Translations under genes and position numbers: made by a program
Notes under the pieces: model-generated
The model's input: the letters and a program-made list of their open reading frames with translations, nothing else
What the model was told of the DNA's origin: nothing
The model's database searches: none
Shown here: positions 21,246 through 41,527 of the stretch, piece after piece
How the letters are laid out: each line of letters begins with the position of its first letter
Numbering within the stretch: position 1 is the stretch's first letter
IMG/VR virus record: IMGVR_UViG_3300037307_000894
Location: 1-41,853 of that record
Reading direction: 5' to 3' (one strand)
Length of the DNA: 41,853 nucleotides
Origin: a virus
Lineage: Duplodnaviria; Caudoviricetes

Positions 21246-23204
21246 TCAGTTGAACCAGCGGCTGCGAATCAATTGACGTGCGGGCCGGCCAGTTCTCGGG
21301 GTTCCAGAAACAGCGAGGCCACCTCGTTGGGTGGCCTCAGTGGGTTGGTCGATCTGCGGATCGGGGTCGCCGGGCGGCGACAGCCCAAGCTGCCGTTCCA
21401 GTTCGCGCCAGTGCCGCTCTTCGAAGCGGTCGAGGCCAGAGGCACTCGCCGCCGCGCGGGCATACACGTAGCAGTCGAGCGCCTCGTTCCTCTCGCGCAT
21501 CTTCTGCCACTCGCGCACCGGGTAGCCGTTGCGGTCGCGCCGGGTGATCAACTGCTCGGCGCACAGTTGCTGCAGGTACTCGGCATCCACCTTGGGCAGA
21601 TGGACAAAGCCGGTGGGGTAACGAATCGTGACCCCATCCTCGGCCACCTCCGGCACCTTCCTCAGGCTGTTGTAGAACTCCAGCTTGGCGATGCCGACCG
21701 CGACGGTGAACAGCTTGATGCCCCGGCGCAGTTTCTTGCCGCCGGTCGTGGCGTCCACCGCCGTCGGCGTGCCCACCAGTGCCGCGCCCTTGGCCGAACC
21801 TTTCACCGCCATCACGCGGGGATCGCGGGCCAGTCGCACGAAGGTGTAGGCCTCCTGCGTGGCGAAGCCGGTATCGAGCGCCAACCGGGCGAGCGGCAGC
21901 CGCGCGCCGGACGCGTGTGTCCAGGTCTCGGCGACCAGTTCACCGAGATGTTTCCACACCGCGTCGCGGGCGGTGTCGCCCATCAACACGCGATGCTCGA
22001 CGAGCCATGATTCCTTGCCGCGCCCGAAGGCCCAGATGGAGACTTCGATGCGATCCTTCTGCACGTCGGCCCCGGCCGTGAGAAGCAGGCCGCCCGCAGG
22101 CACGCTGCCCAGCGAATAGTCCTCGCGCCGTTCCAGCAGGCGCTGCCAGTCCAGCGCTTCGCCTTCCTCGACCCAGGCCTCGCCCAGTTCGGAGTTCTTG
22201 AACGCCTTGATGGTCGCCACCGAGCGGCTCTCCGACATGGCAGCCTTCTCCCACGACGCCGCAATCTCACGCCATTTACGCCAAGGGCTGTAGAGGCTGG
22301 ATAGATGAAACCCTGCGCTCGTTCCTATTCCTTGCGCCATCCATTCCCCAAGTTCCAGCATCCGGGATTTGTGATGCTCGGCAATCGCCGCTTCGCAGGA
22401 TTCGCATAGATAGACGGCGGTTTCCGGCTGCCCACGCTCCCAGCGCAGCCGTTCGAACCTCAGCCACTGGCGGTGCCCACAATGCGGACACGGCACGAAG
22501 TAGCGTCGCTGGTCGGACGCCTCATATTCCCGCTCGATGATGCTCGCCCCAGCGATGGTGGGCGTGGACACCAACAGAATCTTGCGCCGCGCAAACGTCC
22601 GGGTGCGCGCTTCGGCCAGGTGGATCGCATCACCCTCGCCATCGACGTCCAGCGGATAGGCATCCACCTCGTCGAGAAAGAGATAGCGCACCGGCATCGA
22701 GCGCAGGCCCACGGCCGAGTTGGCCCCGGTCATCACCAGCACGCCGCCGCGAAACTCCTTCATCAGCACCGTGTTGCCGGAGTCCCGGCTGCGCGGTGGG
22801 GCAATAATGTCCTTCAGCACCGGCGACTCCTCGATGAGGGGATCGATGCGGTGCTTGGAATTGCGCTGCGCCATTTCGGTCGTCGGCCAGACGATCATCA
22901 TCGGGCCGGGTGCGTGATGGATAGCATAACCCACCCAGTTGAGGCCCAGTTCCGTGCCGCCCACCTGCGCCCCTTTCATGAGCACCACCCGCTCCACCGG
23001 CGATGCCGGGGACAGGCAGTCCATGATCTCGCGCAGATAGGGCGTGCGCGCATTGCGCCAGCGCCCAGGCTCGGCCGATTCCTTGGTCGAGAGCATCCGG
23101 TAGCGCTCGGCCCATTCGGATACGGTCAGGCGCGGATCGGGCCGCAGCCCTTCGCGCCAGGCACGTTCGATCTCAAGTGCCCCTTCGTAGTCGTCCGCCA
23201 TCAT
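21246..23204 (-). CDS. terL: Terminase large subunit (GpA family)
   Basis: MKGAQVGGTE, LFLDEVD, LVSTPT, GADVQ, RNEALDCYVYA. Confidence 0.96.
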   Translation of the reverse strand: MMADDYEGALEIERAWREGLRPDPRLTVSEWAERYRMLSTKESAEPGRWRNARTPYLREIMDCLSPASPVERVVLMKGAQVGGTELGLNWVGYAIHHAPGPMMIVWPTTEMAQRNSKHRIDPLIEESPVLKDIIAPPRSRDSGNTVLMKEFRGGVLVMTGANSAVGLRSMPVRYLFLDEVDAYPLDVDGEGDAIHLAEARTRTFARRKILLVSTPTIAGASIIEREYEASDQRRYFVPCPHCGHRQWLRFERLRWERGQPETAVYLCESCEAAIAEHHKSRMLELGEWMAQGIGTSAGFHLSSLYSPWRKWREIAASWEKAAMSESRSVATIKAFKNSELGEAWVEEGEALDWQRLLERREDYSLGSVPAGGLLLTAGADVQKDRIEVSIWAFGRGKESWLVEHRVLMGDTARDAVWKHLGELVAETWTHASGARLPLARLALDTGFATQEAYTFVRLARDPRVMAVKGSAKGAALVGTPTAVDATTGGKKLRRGIKLFTVAVGIAKLEFYNSLRKVPEVAEDGVTIRYPTGFVHLPKVDAEYLQQLCAEQLITRRDRNGYPVREWQKMRERNEALDCYVYARAAASASGLDRFEERHWRELERQLGLSPPGDPDPQIDQPTEATQRGGLAVSGTPRTGRPARQLIRSRWFN

Positions 23205-23749
23205 CCGTCCACCTTCGGCACAAACTCACCCAGTTCCTCCAGATGCACGCGCACGGCGACGTCCAGCGCCACGAACAGTGTGTGCTCATCGATGCCCAGT
23301 TCCGCCGCGAGGATCGGCGTGATGCGATTCGGCCAGTTGATCCACGCCTCCCGTTCGGCCCGCGCCAACTTGAAGACGTGCGCGATGGCCTGCGACCGGT
23401 CGACCAGTTCCCCTTTGAGCTGCGCCAGGCGCACCTTGTTGGTCTGCGCCTTGACCACCTCGTTGACCGTGCGCGCCTGCAGCAGGGACGCGCCGCCGGA
23501 GGGCAATGCAGCGTGGGTGTCGCCTACGGGTGCGCTGGCGGCAGTCTCCTGCGGCACGGTGGACCGGACGGGCCTGGCGCGAGTGCCTGCACGCGGCGCT
23601 TCGGTGTTCTTCGCCCACTCGGCGTCGGCCCGTTGTGGGTCGAGAGTGCCATCGGCCTCGGGCGTGATGCGCCCGCTATCAATCGCCTTCTTGACCGCCA
23701 CGTGAGAGACGCCGCGATGCCGGGCGTAAGCGCGTATCGACAGACCCAT
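23201..23749 (-). CDS. terS: Terminase small subunit (Nu1-like)
   Basis: N-terminal HTH SIRAYARHRGVSHVAVKKAI, KGELVDR; coupled to terL. Confidence 0.8.
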   Translation of the reverse strand: MGLSIRAYARHRGVSHVAVKKAIDSGRITPEADGTLDPQRADAEWAKNTEAPRAGTRARPVRSTVPQETAASAPVGDTHAALPSGGASLLQARTVNEVVKAQTNKVRLAQLKGELVDRSQAIAHVFKLARAEREAWINWPNRITPILAAELGIDEHTLFVALDVAVRVHLEELGEFVPKVDG

Positions 23750-23798: not shown

Positions 23799-23828
23799 CT
23801 TGGCTTTCCTCCAAAGAAGCGCGTTCAT
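23799..23828 (+). promoter_or_regulatory. Conserved upstream motif, copy 1
   Basis: CTTGGCTT-tcctccaaaga-AGCGC-GTTCAT, starting 64 nt before ATG 23863. Confidence 0.75.
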
Positions 23829-23862
23829 GCCATCACCATCAACCACATCGCGGGAGACAAGC

Positions 23863-24132
23863 ATGTACGCCGACAAACTGGACACCCTTGGCAAAAAACT
23901 GGCCGATGCCGCCCTGACCTTGTTGGTACGCCTTTATCCGGAAGTGCGCACCGCAAGCACCACGGAACTCGATGCCGCCTGCGCGGCGATGCGCGCCAAG
24001 TCGAGGGCGGTGATCGACGAGCTGATTGATGACGCCAAGGACGCGCCCGGGGTGGCGCACATCGCGTTTCAGACCGCAGCCCTGACGCTCGCCCACGAGG
24101 GCATAAAGACACTCAAGGCAGGACGCAAATGA
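23863..24132 (+). CDS. Small helical hypothetical protein (89 aa)
   Basis: GGGAG RBS before ATG 23863; downstream of motif copy 1. Confidence 0.75.
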   Translation: MYADKLDTLGKKLADAALTLLVRLYPEVRTASTTELDAACAAMRAKSRAVIDELIDDAKDAPGVAHIAFQTAALTLAHEGIKTLKAGRK

Positions 24133-24156
24133 ATCTGCGAAGCCAGGCAGAAAGAG

Positions 24157-24186
24157 CTTGGCTTCTCGTTCGAACAGCGCCTGAAT
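24157..24186 (+). promoter_or_regulatory. Conserved upstream motif, copy 2
   Basis: CTTGGCTT-ctcgttcgaac-AGCGC-CTGAAT, starting 65 nt before ATG 24222. Confidence 0.75.
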
Positions 24187-24221
24187 GCAATCGCCATCAA
24201 CGCCAACACAAGGAGACGACC

Positions 24222-24410
24222 ATGACCAAGCAAGCCGCCAAAACCCTCGAAACCCTGATCCAGCAGATCGCGCTGGATCACTTGTTCATCGAAACCCTGG
24301 AAACCCGCAACAGCGACCGGCTGGACTTCCACGAGGTCAGCGCCTGGGGCGTCAAGAGCGCCCTGATGGCCGCCTACGAAGCGGGCCGGCAGGCCGCGAA
24401 GCAGGACTGA
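24222..24410 (+). CDS. DUF6900-like small protein (62 aa)
   Basis: IETLETRNSDRLDFHEVSAWGVKSALMAAYEAG; AAGGAG RBS. Confidence 0.8.
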   Translation: MTKQAAKTLETLIQQIALDHLFIETLETRNSDRLDFHEVSAWGVKSALMAAYEAGRQAAKQD

Positions 24411-24427
24411 AAAAGAAACGGAACACG

Positions 24428-24457
24428 CTTGGCTTCACTTCCGAACAGCGCGTTCAT
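24428..24457 (+). promoter_or_regulatory. Conserved upstream motif, copy 3
   Basis: CTTGGCTT-cacttccgaac-AGCGC-GTTCAT, starting 64 nt before ATG 24492. Confidence 0.75.
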
Positions 24458-24491
24458 GACCACACCATCAACCACCACGAAGGAGCATCAA

Positions 24492-25043
24492 ATGGCCACC
24501 ATGCAACTGACCCCTGCCCAGCACGCGATCCTCGCCTATGCGATCGACACTACCTCCGGCAAGATCGAATGGTTCCCCGACAACATCAAAGGCGGTGCCC
24601 GCACCAAGGTGCTGGAGGGCCTGTTCAACAGGGCCCTAATTACCCGCGACAGCACCGACTGGTTCGTCGCCGCCGAGGGCTACGACGCCCTGGGGCGCGC
24701 CCGCCCCACCCCGGCCACCATTCACCCCGACCCGGAGGTTGAGGCCGCCGTGTCGGCGGCTGAGGCCAACTGGGCGCAAGAGAAACAAACCGCTGCCCAG
24801 CGACTGCTCAAGGTCGGCATCGAGGGCAAGCCCCGCACCCGCGCGAACAGCAAGCAGGCCGCCGTGATCCAGATGCTGCAGCGACCGGAAGGGGCCACCA
24901 TCAACCAGATCTGCGCAGCCACCGGCTGGCAGGCGCACACGGTGCGCGGCACCTTTGCCGGTGCGTTTAAGAAGAAACTCGGACTCACCATCACCTCGGA
25001 GAAGCCCGAGGGCGGCGAGCGCATCTACAAGGTGGCAGGGTGA
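24492..25043 (+). CDS. DUF3489 domain protein (C-terminal winged-HTH-like)
   Basis: SKQAAVIQMLQRPEGATINQICAATGWQAHTVRG...KKLGLTITSEK...RIY. Confidence 0.88.
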   Translation: MATMQLTPAQHAILAYAIDTTSGKIEWFPDNIKGGARTKVLEGLFNRALITRDSTDWFVAAEGYDALGRARPTPATIHPDPEVEAAVSAAEANWAQEKQTAAQRLLKVGIEGKPRTRANSKQAAVIQMLQRPEGATINQICAATGWQAHTVRGTFAGAFKKKLGLTITSEKPEGGERIYKVAG

Positions 25044-25255
25044 TCACCATGCGGAAGACCTACCCGACTATGAACGGCGCCGAACCCGCCATCGTCCAGC
25101 CCTCCGTAAATGGTTGGGCCGTTTCCTGGAATCCCGACGATGGGCGCTGGTATGTCGAAGTCCCGGGCGCACCAGGGATTGCCGTGGCGACTTTCAAGGA
25201 TCGCCGCAACGCCATGCAATACGCCAGACAGCACGAGCCGCCATTCGCAAGCTGA
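25040..25255 (+). CDS. Small hypothetical protein (~70 aa)
   Basis: GTGA overlap with the DUF3489 stop; GRWYVE...ATFKDRRNAMQYAR small beta-alpha pattern. Confidence 0.55.
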   Translation: MITMRKTYPTMNGAEPAIVQPSVNGWAVSWNPDDGRWYVEVPGAPGIAVATFKDRRNAMQYARQHEPPFAS

Positions 25256-25282
25256 TCGGGTGTTACCCCGCCTGACCAGAAC

Positions 25283-25308
25283 CGGGGTGGCGGCACACCG
25301 CCGCCCCG
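25283..25308. other. GC-rich stem-loop separating array units
   Basis: CGGGGTGGCGG-CACA-CCGCCGCCCCG followed by an A-tract. Confidence 0.5.
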
Positions 25309-25327
25309 AAAAAAGATGCAGAAAGCG

Positions 25328-25357
25328 CTTGGCTTCCCAATCGAACAGCGCGTTGCT
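25328..25357 (+). promoter_or_regulatory. Conserved upstream motif, copy 4
   Basis: CTTGGCTT-cccaatcgaac-AGCGC-GTTGCT, starting 66 nt before ATG 25394. Confidence 0.75.
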
Positions 25358-25393
25358 ACGGGTGTCGCAACGATCAACCCGAAGGAGAAAACG

Positions 25394-25771
25394 ATGACCA
25401 CGACCAACACCACCCCCGCCACCCAGAACGAAGTCTGGGGCTTTTGGGGCACGATGAACGACAACGCCCAAGCCGCCTGGCCCATCGCGATGACCGCGAT
25501 CTCCAACGCCACCTACCAGCCCCTCGAATCGGTCAGGCTGTTCCTCGATAGCCGCCACGGACGCCACTTTGCGGATGACGTCCTCAACGAGATGCTCCGG
25601 GGCCACGCGATCCAGCAAGCCGTCGACGCCGCCGTCGCCCGCTGGATGGGCTGGACGATTGGCCGCCAGACCAGCAAGGACTATGGCATCCCCAAGGGAC
25701 TGCCTTACCTCACCGGGTTCGTGATTCACTGCGAAGTGACCGACGAGTCCTTCGAAGCCCAAGCCGCGTAA
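25394..25771 (+). CDS. Conserved prophage hypothetical protein (125 aa)
   Basis: WGFWGTM...FLDSRHGRHFADDV; AAGGAG RBS. Confidence 0.8.
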   Translation: MTTTNTTPATQNEVWGFWGTMNDNAQAAWPIAMTAISNATYQPLESVRLFLDSRHGRHFADDVLNEMLRGHAIQQAVDAAVARWMGWTIGRQTSKDYGIPKGLPYLTGFVIHCEVTDESFEAQAA

Positions 25772-25781
25772 GGAGATCGAC

Positions 25782-25988
25782 ATGGCTGCCGTCGTCACCA
25801 GTCCGCAACTCGAAGCCAACTACGACAAGTTCATCGCCGAACTGACAAAGCTCAGCCGAAAGTACGGCGTGGCGATCCAGTCAGTCGGCGGTGTCATCCT
25901 CGCCGACAACCCCGGCGAGTTCAGCGACGTCACCTACGTGGCCGACATCACCAGCGGCGACTTGCTGCCCGAGTTCCCCTCTGCCTGA
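25782..25988 (+). CDS. Small acidic hypothetical protein (68 aa)
   Basis: TAAGGAG RBS; overlaps the 3' end of the convergent MTase ORF. Confidence 0.7.
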   Translation: MAAVVTSPQLEANYDKFIAELTKLSRKYGVAIQSVGGVILADNPGEFSDVTYVADITSGDLLPEFPSA

Positions 25989-27227
25989 GAGAGCATCGAA
26001 CGCAACGCCATCAGACTGCCGTATGGCCTGCGCCCCGGCATAGTCCTGCCAGCGTCGCACGATCACATCAACGTACTTCGGATCCAGTTCGATCAGCCGT
26101 GCCTTGCGGCCTGACTTGTGGGCAGCGATCATCGTGGTGCCCGACCCACCAAAGGGGTCAAGCACCACATCACCCGGGCGACTCGAGTTGCGGATGGCCC
26201 GTTCCACCAGTTCCACCGGCTTCATGGTCGGGTGCAGATCGTTCTTCTGCGGCTTCTTGATCTGCCACACATCCCCCTGGTCGCGGTCCCCGCACCAGTG
26301 ACGATCGGCGCCCTCGGGCCAGCCGTAGAGGATGGGCTCGTACTGGCGCTGGTAGTCGGCACGCCCCAGGGTAAAGGTGTTCTTGGCCCAGATGACGAAG
26401 GTCGACCAGTGACCACCGGCAGCGCGAAACGCTGCCTGCAATCGATCCAGTTCGCTCGATGACATGGCCACATAGATGCCGCCCTGGCAATGCGCCACGG
26501 TGGGCGTCAGTGCCGCCAGCAGGAAATCGTAAAAACCGTCGCCCAGGTTGTCGTTGAGGATCGCGCGATCCTTGCCGCGCATCTTGTCCTTGGCGCTGTT
26601 GGCGTAGTTCACATTGTAGGGAGGGTCGGTGAAAACCATGCTGGCCATTTCGTCGCACAGCACGGTAACGTAGGCATCGGCATCGGTGGCATCGCCGCAG
26701 ATCACCCGGTGCTCGCCGCAGATCCAGACGTCAGCCGCCCGGGATACGACGATGCCGGAGCCATCCGGAACCGCATCCTCGTCGGTCTCGCCTTCGGTGG
26801 TCGTCTCTTCGCCAGCCAGCAGATCGGCCAGGGCGTCGGCGTCGAACCCGGTCAGGGCCAGATCGAATTGATCGTCCTGCAGCGCGGCCAATTCCACTTG
26901 CAGCATCGCTTCATCCCAGCCGGCGTTTTCCGCAATGCGGTTGTCCGCGATCACCAGGGCTCGGCGCTGGGTCGGCGTCAGGTGGTCGAGCACCACGACC
27001 GGCACCATCGCCAGCCCGAGCTTCTGGGCAGCGGCCAGACGACCGTGACCAGCAACGATGACGCCATCGCCCCCGGCCAGGATCGGATTGGTGAAACCGA
27101 ACTCGGCGATCGACGCCGCGATCTGGGCGACCTGAGCCTCCGAGTGCGTGCGCGAGTTGCGCGCATACGGCACCAGCTTGGCCGTGGGCCATTGCTCGAT
27201 CTTGTCGGCGAGCCAGGAGATGGTCAT
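25881..27227 (-). CDS. ParB-N fused DNA methyltransferase (N6A/N4C, beta class)
   Basis: FGFTNPIL...AGHGRL (ParB), FTDPPY, HPTMKP, LDPFGGSGTT. Confidence 0.93.
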   Translation of the reverse strand: MTISWLADKIEQWPTAKLVPYARNSRTHSEAQVAQIAASIAEFGFTNPILAGGDGVIVAGHGRLAAAQKLGLAMVPVVVLDHLTPTQRRALVIADNRIAENAGWDEAMLQVELAALQDDQFDLALTGFDADALADLLAGEETTTEGETDEDAVPDGSGIVVSRAADVWICGEHRVICGDATDADAYVTVLCDEMASMVFTDPPYNVNYANSAKDKMRGKDRAILNDNLGDGFYDFLLAALTPTVAHCQGGIYVAMSSSELDRLQAAFRAAGGHWSTFVIWAKNTFTLGRADYQRQYEPILYGWPEGADRHWCGDRDQGDVWQIKKPQKNDLHPTMKPVELVERAIRNSSRPGDVVLDPFGGSGTTMIAAHKSGRKARLIELDPKYVDVIVRRWQDYAGAQAIRQSDGVAFDALSGRGELGQQVAAGDVGHVGDVAELAGVVGEDDTAD

Positions 27228-28633
27228 GCCTGCGCTCCCAATCGTTCGGCGGCAACTTCCTCGAAGGTCTGTCCCGTTGCCACCAGCGTCACCGGCACCT
27301 CGGGGAAGTTCTGCTGGAAGCGCTTCACGGCGACATCCACATACTCAGGGGCGATCTCGGTGGCGCGTACCTTTCTGCCGGTGCGCTCGGCAGCCAGCAG
27401 GGTCGTGCCCGAGCCGCAGAAGGGTTCGAAGACGAGTTCGCCGGCATCGGTGTAGGACTCCAGGACGAACTGGGGCAGTGCCACCGGGAACACGGCCGGG
27501 TGATCGATGTCCTGACCGATCTTGCCCTTGTGCCGCATGATGCGAATCACGGAATCCGGAATCTTGGTCTCCTGTGTCACCTGGCCGACATGGTTCCAGG
27601 CCGTCTTGCTGCCATCCTTGTTGCGCATGCCGCCGGCACTGGTGCCGTCGCCGCGCAGATGGGTGTCGCGCCCGGCGTAGATGCAGGGCACGAACTTGTT
27701 CGGGCGCCGCGCCTCGGAGTCCTTCCTGTTGAAGTGGAAGACGAATTCGAACGAAGGTGCCAGCCGGCCATTCCAGTCTCCGGGCAATCCCGGCCCCTGG
27801 TCCCAGACATACCAGGCGAATCGTCGCCACCCCCGGGCGCGCATCCAGTCGAGCCAGCCATCCCAGTAGGGAATGACTTCCTGCTCGCGGTGGATGAGGC
27901 CGAGATTGACCAGCACCTGGCCGTTCGGGGCCATGGGCAGGTTGGCGAAGACGCCCCGCATCAGGGCATCCCAATCAATGATGGTGTTCGTGTAGTCCCG
28001 CTGGTTGCCATAGGGTGGCGAGGTGAAGCACAAGGCAGCCTGCTCGCCCGCCATCAGCGTTCGGACGACGGCCTGATCGGTGGCATCGCCACAGATCAGG
28101 CGGTGCGCGCCGATCAGCCAGACATCGCCGGGACGCGAGACCGGGTTCGACGGCACCTCTGGCACATCGTCGGCTGCATCGTCCTCGGTTTCATCCGAAG
28201 ACTCGTCCTGCAGTGCCTGCTCGGCACCAACCAGCAGATCCTCGATCTCCTCGTTGGAAAAGCCGGTCATGGTCAGGTCGTAACCCGCCTCCGACAACTC
28301 GGCCAGTTCCAGCGAAAGCAGTTCCTCGTCCCACCCGGCATCCAGTGCCAGACGGTTATCGGCGATCACGTAGGCGCGCTTCTGTGCTGGAGTGAGATGG
28401 CCAAGTTCGATGACCGGCACTTCCGTCAGGCCGAGCTTGCGTGCAGCGGCCAGGCGACCGTGGCCAGCGATGATGCCGTGGCTGCCATCCACCAGGACCG
28501 GATTGGTCCAGCCAAACTCGACGATGCTGGACGCCAGCTTGGCGATCTGCGCCTCGGAATGCGTGCGCGGATTGCGGGCGAAGGGGATCAGCGTTTCGAT
28601 CTTCCGATACTCGACGCGCAGTTGTTCGGTCAT
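27224..28633 (-). CDS. ParB-N fused DNA methyltransferase (SPPY, N4C/N6A)
   Basis: FGWTNPVL...AGHGRL, FTSPPY, HPAVFP, FEPFCGSGTT; ATG at 28633. Confidence 0.93.
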   Translation of the reverse strand: MTEQLRVEYRKIETLIPFARNPRTHSEAQIAKLASSIVEFGWTNPVLVDGSHGIIAGHGRLAAARKLGLTEVPVIELGHLTPAQKRAYVIADNRLALDAGWDEELLSLELAELSEAGYDLTMTGFSNEEIEDLLVGAEQALQDESSDETEDDAADDVPEVPSNPVSRPGDVWLIGAHRLICGDATDQAVVRTLMAGEQAALCFTSPPYGNQRDYTNTIIDWDALMRGVFANLPMAPNGQVLVNLGLIHREQEVIPYWDGWLDWMRARGWRRFAWYVWDQGPGLPGDWNGRLAPSFEFVFHFNRKDSEARRPNKFVPCIYAGRDTHLRGDGTSAGGMRNKDGSKTAWNHVGQVTQETKIPDSVIRIMRHKGKIGQDIDHPAVFPVALPQFVLESYTDAGELVFEPFCGSGTTLLAAERTGRKVRATEIAPEYVDVAVKRFQQNFPEVPVTLVATGQTFEEVAAERLGAQA

Positions 28634-28640
28634 TGGAATG

Positions 28641-28665
28641 CAAAAACCCGCCACGAGGGGCGGGT
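28641..28665 (-). terminator. Hairpin with U-tract upstream of the first methyltransferase
   Basis: Minus strand ACCCGCC-CCTCGT-GGCGGGT-TTTT. Confidence 0.45.
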
Positions 28666-28674
28666 CGGAAATGG

Positions 28675-28728
28675 GGTGGTAACTCGGTTCAGGTGGTAAC
28701 CGGGGTGGTAACTGGTAACCCTGGTAAC
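28675..28728. repeat. Five TGGTAAC direct repeats, putative terminase binding sites (cosB-like)
   Basis: GGTGGTAAC at 28675, 28692 and 28704; TGGTAAC at 28713 and 28722. Confidence 0.7.
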
Positions 28729-28748
28729 CTCGTTTCGGGATCGGACGC

Positions 28749-28803
28749 TAGCGAAATGCCGCGCTCGCGCCCCCCGCATGGGATTTCGGACAGGAAGGAC
28801 CCG
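28749..28803 (-). other. Lambda-like cos site (cosQ + cosN)
   Basis: Minus strand CGGGTCCT...TGCGGGGGGCGCGAGCGCGGCATTTCGCTA versus lambda CGGGTCCT...TACGGGGCGGCGACCTCGCGGGTTTTCGCTA. Confidence 0.75.
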
Positions 28804-28808
28804 TCGAA

Positions 28809-29618
28809 TTACAGGTCTGACGTCGGGGTTCTGCCATTCCTCAGCGGGTTGTGCTCAAGGCACTTCCCGTAGAACTCGTCCAGACCCGGGTCACCTGATT
28901 GGGAGTCGATGAACGTCAAGATGTCTTCCCAGGCGAGAAGGCCAAGATCAATGCGGCTCAGCGTTGGCAGGAAGATGGTGTCGAACCAGTCACGATGCTT
29001 TTCCCCATAGTCCGCCACGCGGCCTGCCACCTTGCCCTTGATGCTCGCATCGGTGACCAACTCCCCGAAAACACCGCTTTCAATCTGCGCCTTGGGTGCA
29101 ATGACGTAGAACCCCAGGCGCTCGACCTTGGACGGGTCGATGCCAGCCACTCCAAGCATGTACGCCATACAGGCCACGTTGCGTGCGGCCTGGTCATACG
29201 AGGGTGCGTTCTTGGTTCCCGCCGACAACGAACTGCCCAGTTTTGCTTCGGTGACGACAAATTGGGAAAGACGAGGCAGCAGCGACGCATCGCCACGCAC
29301 GCCGGAGTCGATCTTGATGTGTCCGATCACGCCATCCGCGTGAGTGAATGACTCGGCCAGAGGATCGCCACGCCTCTCCGGTAGAAACCGAGAGGGCAGC
29401 AGCGCCTCGGAGTACCAGGTCGCATCGGGCAGGAGAGCCAGCGGATGATCGGCCTCGCGATGCTTGTCAAACCAGTCCAGCACGAGGCGAAGCATCCAGC
29501 CTTCGTTGTACAACTCGGTCGGGGGAAGCACAGGCTGCTGTCCACCGCAACGCCCCAGCATCCCGAAAACCCGGGAGATCGCATTCGTATCCATGGCGTT
29601 GTCAGTGTCGTGATTCAT
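28809..29618 (-). CDS. Putative PD-(D/E)XK nuclease-fold moron protein
   Basis: THADGVIG...VVTEAKL...YDQAAR pattern; the start could be 29594. Confidence 0.6.
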   Translation of the reverse strand: MNHDTDNAMDTNAISRVFGMLGRCGGQQPVLPPTELYNEGWMLRLVLDWFDKHREADHPLALLPDATWYSEALLPSRFLPERRGDPLAESFTHADGVIGHIKIDSGVRGDASLLPRLSQFVVTEAKLGSSLSAGTKNAPSYDQAARNVACMAYMLGVAGIDPSKVERLGFYVIAPKAQIESGVFGELVTDASIKGKVAGRVADYGEKHRDWFDTIFLPTLSRIDLGLLAWEDILTFIDSQSGDPGLDEFYGKCLEHNPLRNGRTPTSDL

Positions 29619-29955
29619 TGCGCCAGAACCCTGCCTTGTAAAACTGCGTAACGACCTCTTCGACGATCTCAGCAGCGAGACTATCGGTCAGCAAATCATC
29701 GCCATAGGTGCGGCATTCGATATGGGTGGGCTTCTGGTCGTCCCAGACGACCAGTACCGTTGCCCTCGGTTCCCCTGTCCATCGGAAGAAATAGGCTACG
29801 CCCTCTTCGATGCTCTCATCCCAGAACGAATCGAAGTCCACGCCGGTCACGCGCATCTCGCTGAACATCTCCTCCCACGAGGTGATCGGCTGCAAGAATT
29901 CTGTTGCCTCGATGGGCGGCGGCGGAAATATCACATCCAGTTTGTCGTTTGTCAT
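29602..29955 (-). CDS. Acidic hypothetical protein, degenerate PcfJ-like
   Basis: FPPPP...PITSWEEM.SE...G.AYFFR...PRATV; alternative GTG start at 29985. Confidence 0.5.
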   Translation of the reverse strand: MTNDKLDVIFPPPPIEATEFLQPITSWEEMFSEMRVTGVDFDSFWDESIEEGVAYFFRWTGEPRATVLVVWDDQKPTHIECRTYGDDLLTDSLAAEIVEEVVTQFYKAGFWRNESRH

Positions 29956-30178
29956 GCCGAGTATCTTATCCGAGCGAAAGCTCACCGGATGAGCCAGGCA
30001 TGAAGCGAAAGAGGGATTTTCGAGGGCGAAAAAAGTTCAAAAGACCCTTCTGGAAAGCGATGCAGGCATCACACCCACACCGCTCGCCAGATCATAGCTG
30101 TCATCCTATCAAAATCCGGCCTTTGTGTTGCATGCCAGTTTCATCCGAAAACGCCCGGAAGCCTGAAAACAAGGACAT

Positions 30179-30616
30179 TCACGGCATGCGTTGCCCTACT
30201 TGACCCTCCAGTTTGGAAGCATGGTCGGCGGCTGCCGTCTGACGGTCATTCAGATGATCGGCCACGAGCTGCAATGCCTTTTGCCACCGCCGCCAGGCCG
30301 TCGTGCGGTCGCGCCCGAGGCGGCGGCAGATGAACTTCCACTCGTAGTGCTTGGCGCGCATCCACACCAGATGCCGCTGCTCGACCTCGAGCCACTGCAT
30401 CCAGCGCATTGCTTCCAGCATCCGGTCGACGGCCTCGGGAGTCGGGGGCAATGGCCGGTACTCGTAGTCCTTGTCGTCGAAGCCTTCCCATCCATCGCGC
30501 ACGAAGGCTGGCCACACGTTGAAGTAGCCCTGCACCCTGACCCGGGGCAGTCGCCGTCCTGTCTCGGCCGCCTCGGCAAGCCGAGCCGCCACGTCATCCA
30601 ACGTCCATTCAGTCAT
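30179..30616 (-). CDS. DUF6362 family protein, putative late-gene regulator (C-terminal HTH)
   Basis: VAARLAEAA.T..RLP.VRVQGYFN.WP...WKFICRRLG.DRTTAWRRW; last gene of the early operon (Q-like position). Confidence 0.75.
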   Translation of the reverse strand: MTEWTLDDVAARLAEAAETGRRLPRVRVQGYFNVWPAFVRDGWEGFDDKDYEYRPLPPTPEAVDRMLEAMRWMQWLEVEQRHLVWMRAKHYEWKFICRRLGRDRTTAWRRWQKALQLVADHLNDRQTAAADHASKLEGQVGQRMP

Positions 30617-37944: not shown

Positions 37945-38406
37945 ATGAACGCTCCCGCTATCCCCAAAACACTGCCCTCAGAAGAGGACATCGCGCTCGC
38001 ACGGGAGTCGGGCCGCGCGTTGTCGACCGTGCTCCAAACCCGTGCCGAAACCCAGCAGATCGACTTCCATGACGACAAGGGGGCGGTGCGTGCCGTGCGC
38101 ATCCCGACGTCGGCGCTGCGCCTGTTGCTGGAAGTCTTGACCGAGATCGGCCAGGGCAACGCCGTATCGATCATTCCGATCCACGCAGAACTGACCACGC
38201 AGGAGGCCGCCGACGTGCTCAACGTCTCGCGCCCCTTCCTTGTCCAGTTGCTGGAGAAGGGCGACATGCCGTTCCACAAGATCGGCACGCATCGCCGCGT
38301 GCGCTACCAGGACGTTATCGCCTACAAGAAGCGCATCGATGCCGAGCGTCGCAAAGCTCTGGATGAGTTGGCCGCGCAGGCCCAGGAACTCGGCATGGGA
38401 TACTGA
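37945..38406 (+). CDS. Excisionase-family (HTH_17) DNA-binding protein, putative antitoxin
   Basis: LTTQEAADVLNVSRPFLVQLL..G.MPFHKIGTHRRV; paired with a PIN gene. Confidence 0.88.
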   Translation: MNAPAIPKTLPSEEDIALARESGRALSTVLQTRAETQQIDFHDDKGAVRAVRIPTSALRLLLEVLTEIGQGNAVSIIPIHAELTTQEAADVLNVSRPFLVQLLEKGDMPFHKIGTHRRVRYQDVIAYKKRIDAERRKALDELAAQAQELGMGY

Positions 38407-38410
38407 TCGG

Positions 38411-38983
38411 ATGAGCTCGCACTTCACCGTCGTCTATGACGCCTGCGTGCTCTACCCGGCACCGCTGCGCGATTTGCTGATGCATCTGGCGCTGTCGGAC
38501 TTGTACCGGGCACGCTGGAGCGACCTGATCCACGACGAGTGGACGCGCAGTGTGCTGGCCAGCCGCCCCGACTTAACCCAAGACCAGCTGAACCGGACAC
38601 GCCATCTGATGAATGCCCATGTCCGGGACAGTCTGGTCACCGGATTCGAGTACCTGATTCCGTCGATCAACCTTCCCGACCCGGACGACCGCCACGTGGC
38701 GGCGGCCGCCATCCACTCCGGAGCCAGCCTGATCGTGACCTTCAACCTCAAGGACTTCCCGACAGAGGCACTCAAGCCCTACAACCTCGCGGCCCAGCAT
38801 CCGGACGACTTCATTGTCGATCTGCTGGATCTGCATCCCGCAGGCGTGCTGGAGGCCGCCGCCTGCCATCGGCGCTCGCTGAAAAATCCGCCCAAAACGG
38901 CAGACGAATACCTCGACACCCTGCTGGCGCAGGGTCTGACTCAATCGGTGGCGGTCATGCGCCAATGGACTGTGGCCATGTAA
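38411..38983 (+). CDS. PIN-domain protein (putative VapC-like RNase toxin)
   Basis: VYDACVLY, IHDEW, PDPDDRHV, IVTFNLKDF acidic PIN motifs. Confidence 0.88.
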   Translation: MSSHFTVVYDACVLYPAPLRDLLMHLALSDLYRARWSDLIHDEWTRSVLASRPDLTQDQLNRTRHLMNAHVRDSLVTGFEYLIPSINLPDPDDRHVAAAAIHSGASLIVTFNLKDFPTEALKPYNLAAQHPDDFIVDLLDLHPAGVLEAAACHRRSLKNPPKTADEYLDTLLAQGLTQSVAVMRQWTVAM

Positions 38984-39001
38984 CGGCCAAAGGGAGAATG
39001 C

Positions 39002-41248
39002 ATGGGCAAAAAGACCCTGACCAACGCGCACTGCCTGCTTGACCTGATCGAGAAGGCTCCAGTTCAGACTCTCAAGGCTTTTTCCGGACTCTCCGAATGC
39101 CAGGCGCTGACTCGTGGCTTCGACTGGTCACAGGATGCTGCTGCGCTCCCCTCCGCCCTGATCGAACACATCAGACATCTCCGAAAAGATCAGCGTGATC
39201 CTGCCGAGCGCGAGGCACTGCGCGTACTGCGACTGGCATCCCCGCACGGCGCGCAAATCCTCACAACCGTCGCCGACCAGCTCAACGACAACGATCTGAT
39301 CGCCGCTTTCACGAACCAGGACGGCGGCGAGATCGGCCGCGCGGTCTGGATGCGCACCCACTCCGACGAGGCGGCGCGTCTGTTCGATGTTGCCGAGTCG
39401 ATCCTGAATACCGGCGACATCCGGGGCAACAAGCGCCTCTACGACGCTTTCGATGTGCCGTGCGACGATGCACCGCCCTTCATCTGGAACGACTCCGTCA
39501 AAAAGGAACTGGAGTCGCAGCTCACCAGCGCGATGCGCCTCGGCGAACCCTGCGAAGTGGTCTACGTTCCGCTGGCCGACGAGAAGAAGAACGGCGACAC
39601 GAAGACCATTCATTACCTCGTTGTCCGGTTTGCCGGAGATCAGGTGACGGCGGTGCAGGTGGTCAACCGCAACCGGAAGAGTTTCTGCTACTTCCCGGCA
39701 CGCGACGCGACACTGGTTTACGCGCCGGATCGCAAGGTGGTGGAGGTCTATGCGCACACCCTGTCGACGCGCGCTCCTCTGGCGAATGTTCTGTCCAAGC
39801 ACGGTTTCAAGGCTCCGCTATCGAACCGTCCCCTGAACCGGTCGCGTTACGACCTGTCCCGGTTCGCGTTGCCCCTGCGGGACGAGAAACCGCAATTGGA
39901 TGGCGTGAAGGTCGAGCGTCTATATCTGACGGAGGCCAAGGCATTGCTCGGACATTCGACGGACGCCGTGTCTCTGCACATCGACAGCGGCGCGGAACTG
40001 CACGAGGTCATCAATGATCGTTGGAGCAACCATCCGTTCTCGCAACCCGGAGCCATCCTCGGCGTGACGCTGTTGGCCGATCTGGTGTTCGATGGCGAAA
40101 CCGGCGAAACGCCGCTGTCCATTGTGCTGGCGGAACCCGGCCGATGCAGCCTGCAAGGCGAGAAGGACCTCCGGCTACGGCAGGCCGGGACGCAATTGCT
40201 CGAAGCGTTGGGCGTTCTGAAGCCGTTGCACCCGGGCTCGGGTATCGACGACCCGAACCTTGTCGTTCAGGTGGCTCGTCTGCTCGAATCCGCGACCAGC
40301 CCGATGGACGGCTTCGCACTGGCGCAACTGGGGATCGACATCGACCGATTCGAGGATGAAGGCATTATCACCGAGGGCGACCGGATCACCGAGAGGGTGG
40401 TCGATCTGGCCGACGGCGAGCGGTTCACGGTCAAATTGGAGCGCTGCGTCGACGCCAATCAGGTGCGCTACCGTGATCCGCTCACCGGTATAGATGTAAT
40501 CCTGCCCGCCAAACATGCGCGGCGCTGGAAAGTGCATCTGAACTGGCTGCGCGAGGAGATCATCACGGCCTTGGGCACCGCGCTGCAGGGGGTACGTAGC
40601 AAGTATGTTGATGAAGAGCCCGTGTTCCTGGGCGAAATCGACATCGACGGGCATGCCGTCGCGCTCTACTTCGCCGCGAAGATGTCCAGCGAGCGCCAAT
40701 ACGCCCGCGTCGATACCGCCTTGCGGCTGCACCCTCGCCCCGTTCCCGGCATCGTGCTGACGACGGCATCCGTCCCGTTCCCGTTCGCCGGGACGAATGT
40801 GGTGATCCCCATCGAGGACGTGGTGTCGTCCGCTGGCGCGAAAACAGCCATCGACATGACTCGTCTCACGGTCGCGTATCGGCACGGACGGTTGGCTGCA
40901 ATGGGTGGCACCTCGGTAAGCCTGAAGGTATCCGCCGACGGGTATGCGGCCGTGTTGTACCTCCCTGGCAAAGCACCTTGGCGTGTCACCGGCAAGGGCA
41001 AGATCACCGTGCTGCAGCGCTTGGTCGATGCCTACGCAACAGGCACGCATGTGAACACCAAGATACTGATGGACGACACAGGATGTGCATCGCCTGCCAA
41101 CCTGTTCTCCAAGACGTCGCCCTGGAGAAACTACCTGGCCAGAGTCAAAGGCACTCACGGATGGCAGTTGAACCTGCCGATCCTCGACGCTCCGGTCGAT
41201 GATGACGAAGAAAAGATCGAGACGGAAGAAGTCGCACTGATCGGCTGA
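39002..41248 (+). CDS. Large hypothetical protein (748 aa), possible C-terminal winged helix
   Basis: GGGAG RBS, 18 bp after the PIN stop; no recognised catalytic motif. Confidence 0.8.
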   Translation: MGKKTLTNAHCLLDLIEKAPVQTLKAFSGLSECQALTRGFDWSQDAAALPSALIEHIRHLRKDQRDPAEREALRVLRLASPHGAQILTTVADQLNDNDLIAAFTNQDGGEIGRAVWMRTHSDEAARLFDVAESILNTGDIRGNKRLYDAFDVPCDDAPPFIWNDSVKKELESQLTSAMRLGEPCEVVYVPLADEKKNGDTKTIHYLVVRFAGDQVTAVQVVNRNRKSFCYFPARDATLVYAPDRKVVEVYAHTLSTRAPLANVLSKHGFKAPLSNRPLNRSRYDLSRFALPLRDEKPQLDGVKVERLYLTEAKALLGHSTDAVSLHIDSGAELHEVINDRWSNHPFSQPGAILGVTLLADLVFDGETGETPLSIVLAEPGRCSLQGEKDLRLRQAGTQLLEALGVLKPLHPGSGIDDPNLVVQVARLLESATSPMDGFALAQLGIDIDRFEDEGIITEGDRITERVVDLADGERFTVKLERCVDANQVRYRDPLTGIDVILPAKHARRWKVHLNWLREEIITALGTALQGVRSKYVDEEPVFLGEIDIDGHAVALYFAAKMSSERQYARVDTALRLHPRPVPGIVLTTASVPFPFAGTNVVIPIEDVVSSAGAKTAIDMTRLTVAYRHGRLAAMGGTSVSLKVSADGYAAVLYLPGKAPWRVTGKGKITVLQRLVDAYATGTHVNTKILMDDTGCASPANLFSKTSPWRNYLARVKGTHGWQLNLPILDAPVDDDEEKIETEEVALIG

Positions 41249-41335: not shown

Positions 41336-41527
41336 ATGAAGAACCTCGAACTCGCATCACCCTCGGAGATGTCCGCCAGCGCCCGTGCTGGTGAAATCAC
41401 CACCATCCTTGCGGCAGCCATCGTCCGCACGCTCGCCGGCGACGATCAAAAACAGAGAGAAGTTGGACTTGGCTTCCTGCCCGACCAGCGCGTTCATACA
41501 ACCCCCTATCAAAAGGAGAAGTTGTGA
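41336..41527 (+). CDS. Small hypothetical protein (63 aa) upstream of DUF2924
   Basis: GGAG RBS; TGATG overlap with the next gene; contains motif copy 5. Confidence 0.5.
   Translation: MKNLELASPSEMSASARAGEITTILAAAIVRTLAGDDQKQREVGLGFLPDQRVHTTPYQKEKL
41468..41497 (+). promoter_or_regulatory. Conserved upstream motif, copy 5
   Basis: CTTGGCTT-cctgcccgacc-AGCGC-GTTCAT, starting 59 nt before ATG 41527. Confidence 0.72.

Follow-up and report, generated by a model that had tools for sequence, protein, structure and literature searches.

Cassettes of small genes that share a repeated promoter unit have been described in phages and in plasmids. In the T4-type phages RB49 and phi1, the promoter-early stem-loop (PeSL) cassettes consist of intergenic promoter units that recur before small unknown genes, each with AT-rich DNA upstream and a Shine-Dalgarno (SD) sequence, and the genes are shuffled by recombination between the repeats; PeSLs conform to the consensus for Escherichia coli sigma-70, show very high strength, and include a terminator stem-loop (Arbiol et al. 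2010, PMC2839356). In the CUP-controlled regulon of IncN plasmids, a unit of promoter plus operator is repeated once per operon in a set of small operons that move by recombination between the repeats; the units are described as ArdK-dependent, located in the leading region of a conjugative plasmid, and associated with ard genes (PMC5027574). Here, we analyze a repeated motif in the IMG/VR virus record IMGVR_UViG_3300037307_000894 (Duplodnaviria; Caudoviricetes). The whole stretch of 41,853 nucleotides is called the window, and the motif, CTTGGCTT-N11-AGCGC, precedes each unit in an array of small genes.

The motif resembles PeSLs in its AT-rich upstream DNA, in the SD sequence before small unknown genes, and in signs of shuffling by recombination between repeats. 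In contrast to PeSLs, its -10 element is fixed and non-consensus, positions -17 to -13 form a conserved box, and the copies have no hairpin in common; it is found in temperate phages, where it also heads the integration operon. The logic of repeated operons is that of CUP, but the element lies in a prophage and covers the integrase module, and no Ard family match was found among the cassette proteins scanned. In the way its cassettes work, the motif system is like both PeSL and CUP, but it belongs to neither. A further parallel is phage lambda, whose CII protein activates the poor promoters PRE, PI, and PaQ and co-activates integrase and a transcript opposing late functions. The analogy would be a phage activator that acts on poor promoters and jointly switches integrase and an anti-late transcript. 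Unlike in lambda, the conserved box here lies beside the -10 and not around the -35, and the targets are swappable cassettes; no CII-like match was found among the window proteins.

No description of the motif turned up among the papers listed by our literature searches. The motif is real and widespread, and it apparently represents an undescribed class of phage promoter tied to cassette shuffling and integration. Our preferred explanation, to which we assign a probability of roughly 0.55, is that the repeat is a phage-private promoter for host sigma-70 that depends on a phage factor acting at the AGCGC box.

Motif copies and promoter-like anatomy

A preliminary description of this DNA, made from its letters, had reported four motif copies at 23799, 24157, 24428, and 25328. 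All four were recovered as exact matches to the motif on the + strand. That description had overlooked a fifth, likewise exact, which lies at 41468 (+) and 59 nt ahead of a DUF2924 gene. The start sites below are predicted from a sequence logo.

23799..23837, + strand: motif copy 1; -10 element GTTCAT; predicted start site 23835
24157..24195, + strand: motif copy 2; -10 element CTGAAT; predicted start site 24193
24428..24466, + strand: motif copy 3; -10 element GTTCAT; predicted start site 24464
25328..25366, + strand: motif copy 4; -10 element GTTGCT; predicted start site 25364
41468..41506, + strand: motif copy 5; within the 3' end of a 63-amino-acid (aa) open reading frame (ORF); heads DUF2924

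Copies 1 to 4 lie 64, 65, 64, and 66 nt from an ATG, and each leader contains ATCAAC and GGAG, in agreement with the spacing of 64 to 66 nt and the leader first described. The A-rich DNA claimed before copies 2 to 4 was also recovered, with 13, 15, and 11 A in the 30 nt upstream, versus 6 at copy 1. Only copy 4, among the five, has a strong GC hairpin upstream. A position weight matrix (PWM) built from exact copies finds the five sites at 39 to 48 bits and no other site of at least 8 bits in the window. Because the best score in 20 first-order Markov simulations of the window was 15.7 bits, the copies are not chance; with two mismatches permitted, the window holds 7 matches versus 1.6 expected.

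The logo was built from 259 copies in protein-anchored loci, which were scored on the upstream part of the motif only and required to have an SD-like word downstream. Positions from -12 onward, left unscored when the copies were chosen, show the following frequencies: G at -12 (0.94), T at -11 (1.00), T at -10 (0.94), T at -7 (1.00), a pyrimidine at -1 (0.99), a purine at +1 (0.81), and C at +3 (0.99). The -10 hexamer is GTTCAT in 218 copies, GTTACT in 22, CTGAAT in 14, and something else in 5. The order along this signal of about 40 bases and the DNA before it is phased A-tracts, then TTGGCT, then 17 nt to the -10, with the AGCGC box at -17 to -13. A-rich peaks stand about 5, 16, and 27 nt before the motif, alike in the logo of the window's group (beta) and in that of the Gram-positive phages described below; this is the phasing of UP elements. 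The sigma-70 features are present, namely a TTG-type -35, a 17-nt spacer, -7T, a pyrimidine-purine start, and an A-rich UP region, except that the -10 has G and T in place of the sigma-70 T at -12 and A at -11. Sigma-70 requires A at -11. The preliminary reading of a promoter-like geometry with a noncanonical -10 is thus upheld by the anatomy of the 259 copies.

The spacer is variable in sequence and the logo is asymmetric, with no nested complementary covariation among the 259 copies, and Rfam gave no match to the motif. A reading as a hairpin or structured RNA was rejected, as the 259-copy analysis found only scattered, non-nested pairs.

How might such a promoter work? Host sigma-70 RNA polymerase is predicted to bind the A-tracts, the TTGGCT -35, the -14G, and the -7T, and the non-consensus -10 would prevent firing as long as no phage-encoded factor occupies the AGCGC box that immediately precedes it. 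One switch would then turn on integration or excision together with the accessory genes, all of them within one phase of the phage cycle. In these proteobacterial phages, the cassette transcripts would also run counter to the late operon. We infer transcription, activator dependence, and timing from sequence features.

Cassette arrays, phage specificity, and neighboring genes

We compared 91 distinct arrays, bounded by terminase genes and a DNA methyltransferase (MTase) gene and found partly by the motif and partly by DUF3489. Together they hold 325 motif copies, 2 to 6 per array, plus one antisense copy, and an SD sequence and start codon follow 60 to 72 nt downstream in 313 of the 325. The genes that stand first behind the motif belong to 20 families, arranged in 35 orders. 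Gene content therefore varies among relatives; invariant content would have spoken against the swappable cassettes first proposed. The commonest order (28 of 91 arrays) is DUF6900, DUF3489, and a 125-aa protein, to which the window adds an 89-aa cassette in front. Alignments between arrays start 6- to 11.5-fold more often than expected in the 30 nt before the motif, and one terS-proximal promoter precedes three different genes in different phages. Shuffling at the motif junctions is established by these comparisons, and its pattern fits homologous exchange at the repeats, in line with the gain and loss by recombination suggested earlier.

Arrays also occur in other positions. Xanthomonadales-type proviruses (L702-L703 = G001, L368, L349) carry up to six further copies, which make up a second array after the tail genes, and single post-lysis cassettes are found in L338, L399, and L946.

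By tool estimates, which include some chance matches, the exact motif is found in about 1100 stretches of IMG/VR and about 1500 of GTDB. Copies near phage proteins come from Rhodocyclaceae, Comamonadaceae, Ralstonia, Cupriavidus, Xanthomonadales, and Methylococcaceae. The -7T, present in 160 of 161 copies in phage context, is found in just 21 of 54 genome matches without a phage protein nearby, and single exact matches in unrelated taxa were accordingly treated as chance. When loci were retrieved with the DUF2924 protein, all 80 had the motif 59 nt upstream of DUF2924, and it stays with DUF2924 (at 62 nt) where the operon is inverted. The preliminary description had named equal abundance in host DNA as an observation that would count against a phage motif. 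Instead, five host genomes (22.8 Mb) gave 26 matches at no more than one mismatch, versus 0 for a reversed control; the 21 exact ones all lie in prophage stretches or at DUF2924, and two of the five inexact ones were inspected and head mobile-element genes. Placement, conservation, and phage specificity are thereby established: comparison of these loci reveals the same signal at the head of every accessory cassette and of the DUF2924-recombinase operon, and its near absence from host DNA. This leaves an alternative host sigma without a regulon in the host, which makes its involvement unlikely.

Individual relatives show further settings. Acidithiobacillus phage AcaML1 (JX507079) has three array copies and one before DUF2924, and the stretch examined carries no annotation of a motif-like feature. 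The 65-kb Ralstonia record NZ_CP115954 (L458, L862), filed as a plasmid, looks like an excised prophage circle because it holds the full gene set of this phage family; it has cargo where the regulatory slot would be. In L948 (G009:C49, about 118964 and 121184), a mobile island that lies past the lysis genes of the prophage has two degenerate copies at the head of excisionase-like helix-turn-helix (HTH) genes; the island may be a passenger element that borrows the phage promoter type. High-scoring copies in L331:6027 and L339:6027 (-) lie upstream of a small CopG-like ORF and a DUF499 defense-type operon, with ParB-ParB-serine recombinase genes in the vicinity; the distance to a prophage MTase pair in G005 is about 37 kb.

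The array and its neighbors in the window are as follows.

23201..23749, - strand: terS; start 50 nt from copy 1, on the opposite strand
23863..24132, + strand: cassette 1, 89-aa protein (phrog_36268), function not assigned
24222..24410, + strand: cassette 2, DUF6900, 62 aa, core array gene (profile E 6e-25)
24492..25043, + strand: cassette 3, DUF3489, 183 aa, core array gene, weak HTH signal
25049..25255, + strand: 68-aa ORF without its own motif, rare in relatives; no family match in library scans
25394..25771, + strand: cassette 4, 125-aa helical protein (phrog_8020), core array gene
25782..25988, + strand: 68-aa ORF behind the 125-aa gene; own motif ahead in some relatives
25881..28654, - strand: two ParB-N6/N4 DNA methyltransferases
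30179..30616, - strand: DUF6362, last early gene, sigma-4-like HTH
39002..41248, + strand: 748-aa protein in the variable regulatory slot; the motif does not need this gene in cis
41336..41527, + strand: conserved 63-aa ORF with the motif within its last codons
41527..41853, + strand: DUF2924, truncated where the contig stops; in relatives, it opens the serine-recombinase operon

The gene scan agrees with the earlier view that the copies head unrelated small ORFs, antisense and between the two ParB-N6/N4 MTases and terS. The 89-aa family heads 24 of the 313 gene-leading copies, and the 125-aa protein has 2745 homologs. A model of the latter from 30 close homologs reached a predicted local distance difference test (pLDDT) score of 56, with no match at E 0.001 in BFVD or PDB, and a PDB sequence search with DUF3489 found nothing significant. 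The suggestion that the cargo is anti-defense found no library support among the cassette proteins scanned: the array proteins had no PADLOC or NCBIfam match, and the one informative case is a relative's cassette that matches KleA/KleC (E 1.3e-8).

Counterparts in other phages, candidate factors, and alternative explanations

In alphaproteobacterial phages, the array promoter takes the form TTGATA-N12-(A/G)GAGCG-AAC-N-T, one per array, in 58 of 80 loci, and the copy before DUF2924 is more degenerate, with a degraded -35 and mostly G at -11. Four Gram-positive carriers that share the ParB-MTase (Javan105, vB_Gva_AB1, TPDSL_ph1, and NatCom_11578) have two or three copies of TTG(C/A)TA-N12-AGAG(T/C)GA directly after the MTase genes. 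In Javan105 and AB1, a copy directly precedes the serine integrase gene and, like copy 5 of the window, overlaps the last part of a small ORF; this integrase-adjacent copy is found in two of three phages examined, and TPDSL_ph1 has a variant there. The Gram-positive form occurs in about 3500 IMG/VR stretches (a tool estimate that includes some chance matches), and the logo of 168 IMG/VR copies has the same A-tract phasing and no canonical TAnnnT in register. A marker gene is present in 71 of 79 long Gram-positive loci, which were selected by the motif. The cargo is different: "virulence-related protein," DUF7698, DUF4314, amidoligase, and GGACT. Common to the groups are the TTG -35, the 12 nt, the AG(A/C)G(C/T)G box, and the defective -10, as well as an MTase-adjacent array paired with integration genes; this geometry and synteny suggest common descent of the promoters across host groups. 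Streptococcus phage Javan488 and Vibrio phage D93 have an AGAGC box with a canonical -10 beside the MTase. Heliusvirales-type phages carry the Gram-positive form, and in the main text of the "Ca. Heliusvirales" paper, the words "promoter," "sigma," and "motif" occur 0 times (PMC11283538).

A second repeated upstream motif is found in Gram-positive phages, a T-run followed by GCCTGTGA (L540:15061, L541:7821, L545:3689, L546:17631). It precedes early genes and small genes ahead of the integrase and is a candidate target of a phage sigma.

Which protein might act at the AGCGC box? In a cross-group test, 20 window proteins were run as profiles against the four Gram-positive carrier genomes, and only the MTases matched all four strongly (E at most 1e-94). 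The regulators proposed earlier fare poorly. DUF3489 had no profile match in the four genomes. The 748-aa protein, whole or split, is present in all three beta regulatory types (hhalign 94.5 and 96.7% for the split form); however, no homolog was found in the regulatory half of the Ralstonia circle (L458), in provirus G001 (cut in its early region), or in the Gram-positive phages, and it was rejected as the reader of the motif. DUF6362 gave one marginal match in the Gram-positive genomes (E 0.047) and shares a 30-column HTH match, at 70% probability, with the DUF1492 regulators that occupy the same gene position in Gram-positive phages. Among proteins common with these carriers, a DUF6362/DUF1492 sigma-4-HTH regulator is our first candidate activator, though a doubtful one, and a mark laid by the ParB-MTase is the second, which we consider unlikely. 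All full carriers examined have the MTase, and the promoter is present beside a related MTase in 58 of 59 beta loci, 38 of 61 alpha loci (strict pattern), and 53 of 59 Gram-positive loci (motif-selected). The MTase is not sufficient by itself and was rejected as a general predictor of the box: where a related MTase occurs in a different phage lineage, 155 of 160 loci are without the promoter and only 5 have it.

Several points weigh against a phage-private sigma-70 promoter with a dedicated activator. No activator with a strong match in all carriers was found, the link from DUF6362 to DUF1492 being limited to that short HTH match, and the more obvious target of DUF6362 is the adjoining late promoter. 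Lineages differ in the base at -11, which is T in beta, A in alpha arrays and Gram-positive phages, and mostly G in the copy that precedes alpha DUF2924; a single mechanism may therefore fail to account for all of them. The start sites are predictions, and contigs of four RNA runs cover the array and the late genes alike, without start or strand information. The copy before DUF2924 overlaps a coding frame, so its conservation may be partly at the protein level. Finally, the enrichment of breakpoints before the motif is inflated because gene borders draw breakpoints in any alignment.

It is tempting to do without a phage activator altogether. The motif could be a weak promoter read by the host sigma-70 holoenzyme, alone or with a host factor, and controlled by repression or topology. 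All remaining sigma-70 contacts (UP tracts, -35, extended contacts) are intact, and the motif is kept whichever of the three types of regulatory slot is present and whichever way the integration module faces, which favors this explanation. However, the T at -11 in 259 of 259 copies amounts to a positive requirement exactly where sigma-70 needs A, and such sites are nearly absent in hosts; we consider this account possible but, on balance, improbable. Control could instead be epigenetic. Late-expressed ParB-MTases would mark the box in DNA destined for packaging, and the promoters would fire on entry and fall silent as the mark is diluted by replication or integration. There would then be a class across phages of Pseudomonadota, Bacillota, and Actinomycetota in which the integrase and a swappable counter-defense array fire from fresh genomes and are silent in the lysogen, with no protein activator. 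The singular cross-group match of the MTase, its place beside the array in all three host groups, and a regulon of integrase and accessory genes suited to need directly after entry all favor such licensing. It is hard to reconcile with the scarcity of the promoter beside related MTases elsewhere (the 5 of 160 loci above, and 0 of 1 in Wolbachia WO), with the lack of an excess of 12-nt spacing at the MTase loci of other lineages, with an MTase tree (115 subsampled sequences) that leaves carriers ungrouped, and with box sequences that vary between lineages. We therefore regard licensing as quite unlikely, both for the window and as the basis of the wider class. Because the boxes of Javan488 and D93 adjoin a canonical -10, the MTase and host-only readings both stay viable, and these phages count in favor of the latter.

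A sigma of the extracytoplasmic function (ECF) type, encoded by the phage or supplied in trans, could read TTGGCT and a CGTT-like -10; we take the C-13 G-12 followed by TT (beta) or AA (alpha) to resemble ECF -10 elements, and a sigma-70 region-4 protein often heads the early operon in alpha and Gram-positive carriers. Yet no sigma was found among 58 window ORFs scanned (the contig being cut in DUF2924), none is annotated in the Ralstonia circle, and the alpha sigma is present in 28 of 70 loci while the integrase promoter is the same without it, which makes this explanation very unlikely. Least credible, and extremely improbable, is that the cassette array is integron-like and that the repeat is chiefly the site at which the serine recombinase recombines it. 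The cassette junctions do fall at the motif, and one copy lies beside the recombinase operon, but homologous recombination accounts for the chimeric junctions, the distance to the SD sequence and start codon is fixed, and the motif is asymmetric, without nested complementary covariation and without att/attC-like dyad symmetry or a hairpin.

Window layout and significance

The window has lambda-type head genes, the two ParB-N6/N4 MTases, and an early replication operon. In its regulatory slot (37945-41248), HTH_17 and a PIN domain accompany the 748-aa protein, whose family has no known domain; relatives replace the slot, in opposite orientation, with XRE plus an ImmA-like gene plus a split 748-aa homolog, or with an XRE-ImmA fusion. 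A PDB sequence search with the 748-aa alignment gave nothing significant, and the 125-aa and 748-aa proteins fall only in unnamed clusters of the ESM Atlas. A single-sequence model of DUF6362 reached pLDDT 55, with no Foldseek match. The 63-aa ORF has a coding signal upstream of the motif, with 408 changes at third positions versus 157 and 170 at the others. A full-length DUF2924 relative (L188:10001-10450) has a weak RAMA-domain match (E 0.016), on which DUF2924 would be a possible candidate reader of methylated DNA beside the recombinase.

A cos-like site at 28770-28802 (-), upstream of the MTases, is present in 29 of 30 long beta loci. Several GGTTACCA-type repeats follow it at 28650-28730 (-), ahead of the first MTase; we presume a resemblance to lambda cosQ, cosN, and cosB. 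The position of this site led us to abandon the notion of an array located at the genome end that is injected first. The stretch from DUF6362 to this site contains two genes without known family (28809-29985, -; 269 and 127 aa, lower GC), which look like an accessory insertion in the late leader because contigs of four RNA runs skip them. In many unrelated phages (L704-L861), a ParB-MTase gene directly abuts the apparent terS, a conserved pairing.

The motif is a widespread control unit in two large phage groups that have hardly been studied, prevalent gut phages included. As a mining tool, it directs counter-defense screens to co-expressed candidates from dozens of unknown families of small genes, and it may supply an orthogonal promoter for biotechnology hosts. 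If the promoter proves to be activator-dependent, it would point to an unknown way of opening a promoter without -11A and to a switch that couples integration to accessory genes.

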